This document shows positions 8,521 through 8,588 of a stretch of 11,251 bases of DNA, piece by piece. The stretch's first letter is position 1. Each line of letters starts with the position of its first letter. Both the position numbers and the translations under genes were made by a program. This DNA is from a virus (Duplodnaviria > Heunggongvirae > Uroviricota > Caudoviricetes), in IMG/VR virus record IMGVR_UViG_2713896736_000010, one strand, 5' to 3'. The notes beneath the pieces are model-generated. The model saw nothing but the letters and a program-made list of their open reading frames with translations, was not told the DNA's origin and made no database searches.

Positions 8521-8531
8521 ACAGACTCCAT

Positions 8532-8554
8532 AAAAAAACCGGCACAATGGCCGG
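8532..8554 (-). terminator. Short GC hairpin followed by T7 tract between the 421-aa gene and the giant gene (possible intrinsic terminator or attenuator)
   Basis: Minus-strand sequence CCGGC-CATTGT-GCCGG (plus 8539-8554) followed by TTTTTTT (plus 8532-8538), lying between the TAA at 8589-8591 and the GGAG/ATG of the giant gene. Confidence 0.35.
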
Positions 8555-8588
8555 GCATCAGGAAATGGTATTAATGGAATATCGTGAA

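Follow-up and report, generated by a model that had tools for sequence, protein, structure and literature searches.

A probable Rho-independent terminator ahead of the giant polyvalent-protein gene in the late operon of a 933W-like Shiga-toxin prophage

Intercistronic attenuators, such as those of rplL-rpoB and rpsU-dnaG, are partial terminators that separate small, strongly expressed genes from a large gene located downstream of them. In E. coli and its phages, a canonical Rho-independent terminator consists of a GC-rich stem-loop with a U tract of at least 7 residues directly behind it, lies in the sense orientation past a stop codon and is unidirectional. In lambdoid phages, late transcription is controlled by Q antitermination at pR'-qut-tR'. 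As restated by Sy et al. 2020 (PMC7547250), late genes of Shiga-toxin (Stx) phages are transcribed from the constitutive promoter pR' only when Q prevents termination; it is established that the lambdoid Q-modified polymerase is resistant to terminators and reads through them (PMC7547250). In the same study, Term-seq was produced for strain Sakai. Terminators are also found in the moron cassettes of lambdoid phages, which are composed of a promoter, a gene and a terminator and are exemplified by lom and bor (Juhala et al. 2000 as cited in PMC2629481 and PMC4104026).

The whole stretch of DNA analysed here (11,251 nucleotides, hereafter the window) is, judging by its sequence, the right end of a 933W-like Shiga-toxin prophage. 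A 601-nt stretch at the hairpin under study was 100% identical to the Stx-converting phages PA28, P27 and Stx2a_F723 and to the prophages of E. coli O157:H7 TW14359 and EC4115, and 99% identical to 933W, VT2-Sakai and phi24B (Sepvirinae, Traversvirus). All genes of the window are located on the minus strand, and the late genes from Q to the giant gene share one strand. The features of the junction studied were as follows.

8589..9854, minus strand: the 421-aa gene (from the ORF list and annotations), the last gene before the putative terminator
8521..8588, minus strand: the non-coding gap between the 421-aa gene and the giant gene, 68 nt
8539..8554, minus strand: the putative terminator hairpin, with CCGGC (8554-8550), the loop CATTGT (8549-8544) and GCCGG (8543-8539)
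8532..8538, minus strand: the T7 tract (U7 in RNA), abutting the stem; the expected site of transcript release
8526..8529, minus strand: the Shine-Dalgarno sequence GGAG of the giant gene, separated by 2 nt from the T tract and by 5 nt from the ATG
145..8520, minus strand: the giant gene, encoding a polyvalent protein of 2791 aa, with the start codon ATG at 8520-8518

The product of the 421-aa gene belongs to PHROG 601, and no Pfam match to it was found. Homologues of this gene are ECs_1241 of Sakai, vb_24B_47 of phi24B and L0133 of 933W. The giant gene is 8.4 kb long and is the final gene before the prophage end; its product contains the domains LPD5, LPD1, MuF_C and LPD38, which are the signature of phage polyvalent proteins. 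The gap between these two genes was the only sizeable intergenic gap in the window. In the first-pass annotation, its length had been given as 41 nt, which is in fact the distance to TTG 8547, the codon inside the hairpin loop at which a mechanical ORF list starts the giant ORF; the true gap (8588-8521) comprises 68 nt, in agreement with the coordinates given in that annotation.

The left end of IS1203/IS629 (IS3 family) was found inserted antisense in the 218-aa gene (window 11122-11251, plus strand), at a distance of 2.6 kb from the hairpin on its upstream side. This gene is a homologue of phi24B vb_24B_44. When the window was reverse-complemented, its first 127 nt had no match to P27 or TW14359, and the junction of IS1203/IS629 with the 218-aa gene was present in no complete E. 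coli genome of the searched collection.

The anatomy of the gap was determined on the minus strand, where the TAA codon of the 421-aa gene (8591-8589) is followed in order by TTCACGATATTCCATTAATACCATTTCCTGATGC, CCGGC, CATTGT, GCCGG, T7, A, T, GGAG, TCTGT and ATG (8520-8518). The hairpin with T7 noticed in the first-pass annotation upstream of the giant gene on the coding strand was thereby located at 8554-8539 and 8538-8532. Its stem begins 34 nt past the TAA codon and consists of 5 bp, all of them G-C, with a loop of 6 nt. The folding energy, which had been proposed as a check, was -8.1 kcal/mol for the hairpin alone and -8.8 kcal/mol in context, and the hairpin was present in both the MFE and the centroid folds of the junction. 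The T tract had been described as running directly into GGAG-ATG; the two elements are indeed adjacent, but they are not fused, because the T run ends 2 nt before GGAG. The T tract follows the hairpin on the sense strand only and not on the opposite strand, and the site is thus unidirectional.

The locus therefore shares the arrangement of canonical intrinsic terminators: a GC-rich hairpin within the range of about 5-14 bp, a short loop and a U tract at a distance of 0-2 nt, all in the sense orientation, past a stop codon, in non-coding DNA and with pairing kept in evolution. It differs from them in two respects. With 5 bp in the window, compared with 6-7 bp in relatives, the stem only just reaches the minimum length, and the U tract nearly meets the next Shine-Dalgarno sequence, which places the site inside an operon and not at its end. 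The fold leaves this Shine-Dalgarno sequence unoccluded. When up to 120 nt of upstream RNA was included in the folding, the terminator hairpin was dominant and had no conserved competitor. No alternative antiterminator fold was found at the junction, and an Rfam scan of the whole window gave no match at E values up to 1; therefore, the element is no regulated attenuator of the classical kind. The gap contained no acceptable -35/-10 pair, and the nearest promoter match (8898-8871, 9/12), located inside the 421-aa gene, was at chance level.

Several other elements near the junction were also considered. A 7-bp palindrome, GAATTAC-GCCCA-GTAATTC (8586-8604, minus strand), extends across the TAA that ends the 421-aa gene and forms part of the centroid fold; it is probably not under selection, since it is degraded in several Oslovirus-type alleles. 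The phage small RNA 24B_1 was rejected as an identity for the hairpin because it lies about 3.4 kb upstream, outside the window, and the small RNA HnrS was rejected because it is located in other prophages. Neither an Hfq peak nor an intergenic entry for ECs1241...ECs1242 was found in the data of Tree et al. 2014.

Comparison with relatives demonstrated that the gap is non-coding on both strands, since the indels that distinguish the relatives (G2/G3 and T7/8/9) are not multiples of 3. A plus-strand ORF at 8418-8639 was rejected because its frame is broken by these indels, and an in-frame start of the giant gene further upstream was excluded by frame-breaking indels as well. Current annotations begin the giant gene at ATG 8520 behind GGAG, which gives the product of 2791 aa, and in phage P27 this GGAG carries a ribosome binding site annotation. 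In older records of 933W L0134 and phi24B vb_24B_48, the ATG was placed 39 nt (13 codons) upstream, in the following regions.

L009 643-681: older upstream start region of the giant gene in 933W (L0134)
L084 9343-9381: older upstream start region of the giant gene in phi24B (vb_24B_48)

With this older start, the terminator is read as MPGHCAGFFYGVC; in the window allele, this upstream ATG is not in frame. Because the indels in relatives are not multiples of 3, the older starts of both records are wrong. The note "leader peptide by SignalP" in phi24B may rest on this false N-terminus, as may the remark "probable outer membrane protein" in PMC3342100. The anatomy of the terminator thus fixes the true start of the giant gene.

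Within the giant gene, a 228-nt (76-aa) unit at about 3626-3854 (minus strand) is present in one more copy in P27, and the difference between the window and P27 in this unit is one of tandem-repeat copy number in the giant protein. Since the length gap to P27 corresponds to a copy of this repeat, an attachment site cutting the 3' end of the giant gene was rejected. Beginning 5 nt past the stop codon, a perfect 12-bp hairpin without a T tract was found at 113-140 (minus strand, -24.5 kcal/mol); it may serve to stabilise the 3' end of the RNA or have a connection with the attachment site. On the strand opposite to the giant gene, positions 3034-3116 (plus strand) map to EcOnc36 (Sakai 1301433-1301515, minus strand) on the assumption that coordinates are the same in two versions of the Sakai record. 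EcOnc36 is an Hfq-bound predicted small RNA of prophage Sp5 (Tree et al. 2014), and Hfq reads of ECs1242 were mostly antisense, for example 1456 sense versus 26613 antisense (Tree et al. 2014, Table S1).

The rarity of the hairpin was assessed with a strict pattern, defined as a perfect all-GC stem of at least 5 bp, a loop of 3-8 nt and a run of at least 7 T within 0-2 nt. The hairpin site was the only one in the window on either strand, and none of 500 dinucleotide shuffles contained such a site. T7 was also the only T run of at least 6 on the coding strand in the 11 kb window. When the pattern was relaxed to at least 4 G-C pairs and at least 6 T, a site was present in 3.6% of shuffles. A lax terminator pattern was not enriched, with 9 sites in the window versus 11.0 +/- 3.3 in shuffles. 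That the lax count is no higher than in shuffles, and that the stem has only 5 bp in the window, would agree with a chance hairpin without function. However, this explanation is highly improbable in view of the result of the strict scan (0/500) and of complete (100%) stem pairing, which compensatory changes have maintained between flanks of only about 70% identity.

Conservation was studied in junctions collected from phage records, IMG/VR and metagenomes, which gave 78 loci with 12 distinct alleles. In all of these loci and alleles, the hairpin was followed by T7-T9 and then by the invariant GGAGTCTGTATGGC, and the block from the T tract to the ATG did not vary between alleles. In Sakai (NC_002695.2), the hairpin occupies 1295987-1296004 and the T tract 1296005-1296011, and a further copy is located in Sp15. 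Three types of stem were found: (G)CCCGGC/GCCGGG(U) in 933W and most others, (A)CCCGGU/GCCGGG(U), and GCCCGAC/GUCGGGC in Oslovirus-like phages, the flanks of which are only about 70% identical. Metagenomes contained the same three types only. In the alignment, 100% of 83 cells were paired, compared with 24-44% when the partner was slid by 1-3 columns. Three of the seven stem pairs vary and all stay paired, two having changed on both sides and one being a wobble: one pair changes from G-C to A-U, the closing pair is G-C, G-U or A-U, and the top pair changes from C-G to U-G. No substitution among the relatives breaks the stem. This covariation represents few independent events, namely about 4 or 5 substitutions in three lineages of one phage group. 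The stem energy was -8.1 kcal/mol in the window, -11.3 kcal/mol in the 933W type, and -9.9 and -12.7 kcal/mol in other relatives. The comparative data place the hairpin beyond chance.

Among bacterial contigs taken as one genome per species, no relatives beyond E. coli phages were found save one 552-nt contig (L058, NZ_JPLE01000287.1), which is labelled Xanthomonas pisi and encodes the N-terminus of the 421-aa protein with 86% identity; this contig is probably a contamination. In two deletion variants from IMG/VR (L049 and L054), at a point some 470 nt ahead of the 421-aa gene match, the lom terminator adjoins a 5'-truncated 421-aa gene; the intervening genes are missing and the giant-gene hairpin is retained.

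The 5-bp stem of the window is a derived state that arose by a 1-nt deletion, one G having been lost from the GGG of the 3' arm. Most relatives have a stem of 6-7 bp with an energy of -11 to -13 kcal/mol, compared with -8 kcal/mol in the window, and the deletion costs the stem about 3-5 kcal/mol. A stem of 5 bp with a loop of 6 nt is at the weak end for E. coli terminators. When the RNA was folded with 200 nt of upstream sequence, the equilibrium probability of the hairpin was about 0.18 for the 5-bp allele and about 0.94 for the 6-bp allele, in a calculation that ignores ribosomes and co-transcriptional folding. The caution voiced in the first-pass annotation, that the short stem makes function uncertain, was thus appropriate for the window allele, but it does not extend to the common allele with 6-7 bp. 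Among records with this junction type, 39 of the 363 complete E. coli records carried the 5-bp allele, as did 8 of the 123 from phages; carriers of this allele include TW14359, EC4115 and Japanese isolates of lineage I/II (clade 8) (PMC12711010).

The late strand of phage P27 was then scanned over 37.5 kb, beginning with Q and including the whole giant gene (L085 3380-40900, plus strand). Eight strict terminator-like sites were found, all intergenic, whereas shuffles contained 0.13 +/- 0.36. The sites on this strand were as follows.

P27 late strand: after Q
P27 late strand: after the portal gene
P27 late strand: two head-gene gaps
P27 late strand: after a tail-fibre gene
P27 late strand: after lom
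P27 late strand: after the next gene
P27 late strand: the giant-gene hairpin

The three distal sites (after lom, after the next gene and at the giant-gene hairpin) recur in 44 IMG/VR loci. By the same criteria, the late operon of lambda has 1 strict site versus 8 in P27. Many terminators thus appear to punctuate the late operon of 933W-like phages. Both the giant-gene hairpin and the site before the 218-aa gene have a T tract that borders on the following ribosome binding site, so that a promoter could not be accommodated at these two sites.

According to the gene order of P27, about 29 kb separate the giant gene from Q/pR', which is located upstream on the same strand of a lambdoid late operon. 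Together with the induction dependence of giant-gene expression (RT-qPCR and RNA-seq, see below), this position places the hairpin inside the Q-dependent late operon. The locus thus resembles the lambda-type Q system in having Q upstream on the same strand and downstream genes expressed only on induction. Unlike tR', which is a switch point beside the promoter, the giant-gene hairpin is one of 8 sites and is distant from pR'. As in moron cassettes, an intrinsic terminator is apparently present within the late operon, near lom and a hok-like gene, which are typical morons. However, the block closed by the hairpin has no convincing promoter (only chance-level matches were found), the first gene of the block has its ribosome binding site directly against the T tract of the terminator that precedes it, and the block and the giant gene occur together in almost all relatives and not as an optional insertion. 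A moron cassette was therefore rejected as the identity of this block, there being neither a promoter nor presence/absence polymorphism.

The series of sites also bears on two explanations other than termination. The U tract could be an enhancer that binds ribosomal protein S1, or a standby site, with the hairpin merely insulating it from upstream structure. Such a translation element would be consistent with the location of U7 2 nt upstream of GGAG, with a Shine-Dalgarno sequence that is not occluded by the hairpin and with the invariance of the block from the T tract to the ATG. Nevertheless, it leaves unexplained both the all-GC stem abutting the U tract and its compensatory upkeep, and the same hairpin-plus-T design is repeated at seven other late-strand gaps; this explanation is considered very unlikely. 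Alternatively, the stem-loop could act in RNA stability or processing, shielding the 3' end of the upstream message after cleavage or, with an RNase E site in the AU-rich stretch that follows it, the 5' end of the message from the giant gene. A selected stem, similar hairpins past other late genes, including structural ones (portal, head), and the 12-bp hairpin without a T tract after the giant gene would all be expected in that case. A stabiliser, however, needs no unbroken U7-9 at the stem, which is kept in 78 of 78 loci, and this role is regarded as unlikely, although the same hairpin could mainly stabilise the upstream mRNA. Both the stability and the translation explanations fit the strict architecture of a hairpin plus a U run less well than a terminator does.

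Published expression data were also considered. In phi24B, CM7 (49148-57571, which is the giant gene) was linked to prophage induction by RT-qPCR (Riley et al. 2012, PMC3342100). In the same work, lom (CM18), located upstream on the same strand, was constitutive and uncoupled from phage regulation, and the induction dependence of CM7 was therefore found surprising, given its position downstream of lom (PMC3342100). A terminator at the hairpin would explain this puzzle. From the anatomy and rarity of the site, its compensatory conservation, the series of similar sites and the published induction dependence of the giant gene, we infer termination at the hairpin, read-through by Q-modified polymerase and a gating purpose. 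It is thus rather probable that the hairpin is a Rho-independent terminator within the Q-dependent late operon, which stops ordinary polymerase, is read through by Q-modified polymerase and thereby makes the giant gene lytic-only.

According to this proposed mechanism, ordinary polymerase would arrive from upstream, for example from the constitutive lom region or from spurious starts in the lysogen. It would form the GC hairpin, pause on U7 and release the transcript immediately ahead of the giant-gene ribosome binding site. Because the space between the T tract and the Shine-Dalgarno sequence is too small for a promoter, transcription of the giant gene would depend on polymerase that passes the hairpin. 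In practice, this would be polymerase that has been modified during lytic growth by Q, at pR' some 29 kb further upstream. The hairpin, together with the two conserved upstream terminators after lom and after the next gene, would silence the giant gene in the prophage.

The first-pass annotation had proposed a partial terminator or attenuator. The terminator part of this proposal was supported by the compensatory and wobble changes in the stem and by the retention of T7-9 in all 78 loci, whereas the attenuator part is weakly supported, because the lytic polymerase of the late operon is terminator-resistant. The position of the hairpin, downstream of small genes and upstream of a large one, is shared with the bacterial intercistronic attenuators. 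However, rplL-rpoB and rpsU-dnaG act on unmodified polymerase in the steady state. Since the lytic polymerase is expected to be antiterminated here, the main effect of the hairpin should be on non-Q transcription.

RNA-seq data obtained after norfloxacin induction are relevant to the same question. The fold changes of genes 44, 45, 47 and 48 were 8.3, 7.0, 7.3 and 5.6, respectively, and those of lom, S, portal and genes 40/41 were 3.0, 134, 30 and about 16; the giant-gene value did not reach significance (p 0.309) (Veses-Garcia et al. 2015, PMC4651098, Table S4). In this numbering, gene 48 is the giant gene and gene 47 is the 421-aa gene. Fold changes of this kind give no absolute transcript levels across the junction and depend on the lysogenic baseline and the sampling time. 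If even Q-modified polymerase sometimes stopped at the hairpin, the giant gene would be made below the level of the upstream small genes, and the hairpin would be a partial terminator that sets lytic stoichiometry. The stepwise fall in fold induction along the operon, from 134 for S through 30 for portal, about 16 for genes 40/41 and 7-8 for genes 44-47 to 5.6 for the giant gene, the 8 terminator-like sites along it and the location of the hairpin between small genes and a gene of 8.4 kb are consistent with such a role. However, the drop is small (7.3 to 5.6) with a non-significant giant-gene value, fold change also reflects the baseline and the time of sampling, and Q-modified polymerase strongly resists terminators. 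The fold inductions of the 421-aa gene and the giant gene thus indicate at most a small drop across the hairpin, and stoichiometry as its main role appears doubtful. This role and that of a gate against ordinary polymerase are compatible, and attenuation is possible as a minor lytic effect (7.3x vs 5.6x).

For a terminator that gates the giant gene, the 5-bp stem probably makes the gate leakier. In its furthest form, which is only a tentative and improbable extension, the hairpin would be the last in a conserved chain of terminators that makes an injected 8.4 kb polyvalent protein of the anti-defence type strictly dependent on Q polymerase. The 5-bp allele, which is fixed in the Stx2a phage of O157:H7 lineage I/II (clade 8; TW14359/EC4115 type), would then represent a naturally occurring mutant with a leaky gate that lets lysogens express some polyvalent protein. 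The 5-bp and 6-bp stems constitute a natural, testable allele pair, and if this extension is true, the leaky gate would affect host defence or fitness.

By analogy, the hairpin would behave like terminators known inside antiterminated lambdoid late operons. It is a previously unannotated terminator that is ordinary in kind and introduces no new principle, and its recognition is useful for annotation. The unusually terminator-rich late operon of the toxin phages is of modest additional value: with so many terminators, late-gene expression, that of Shiga toxin included, would lean heavily on Q.
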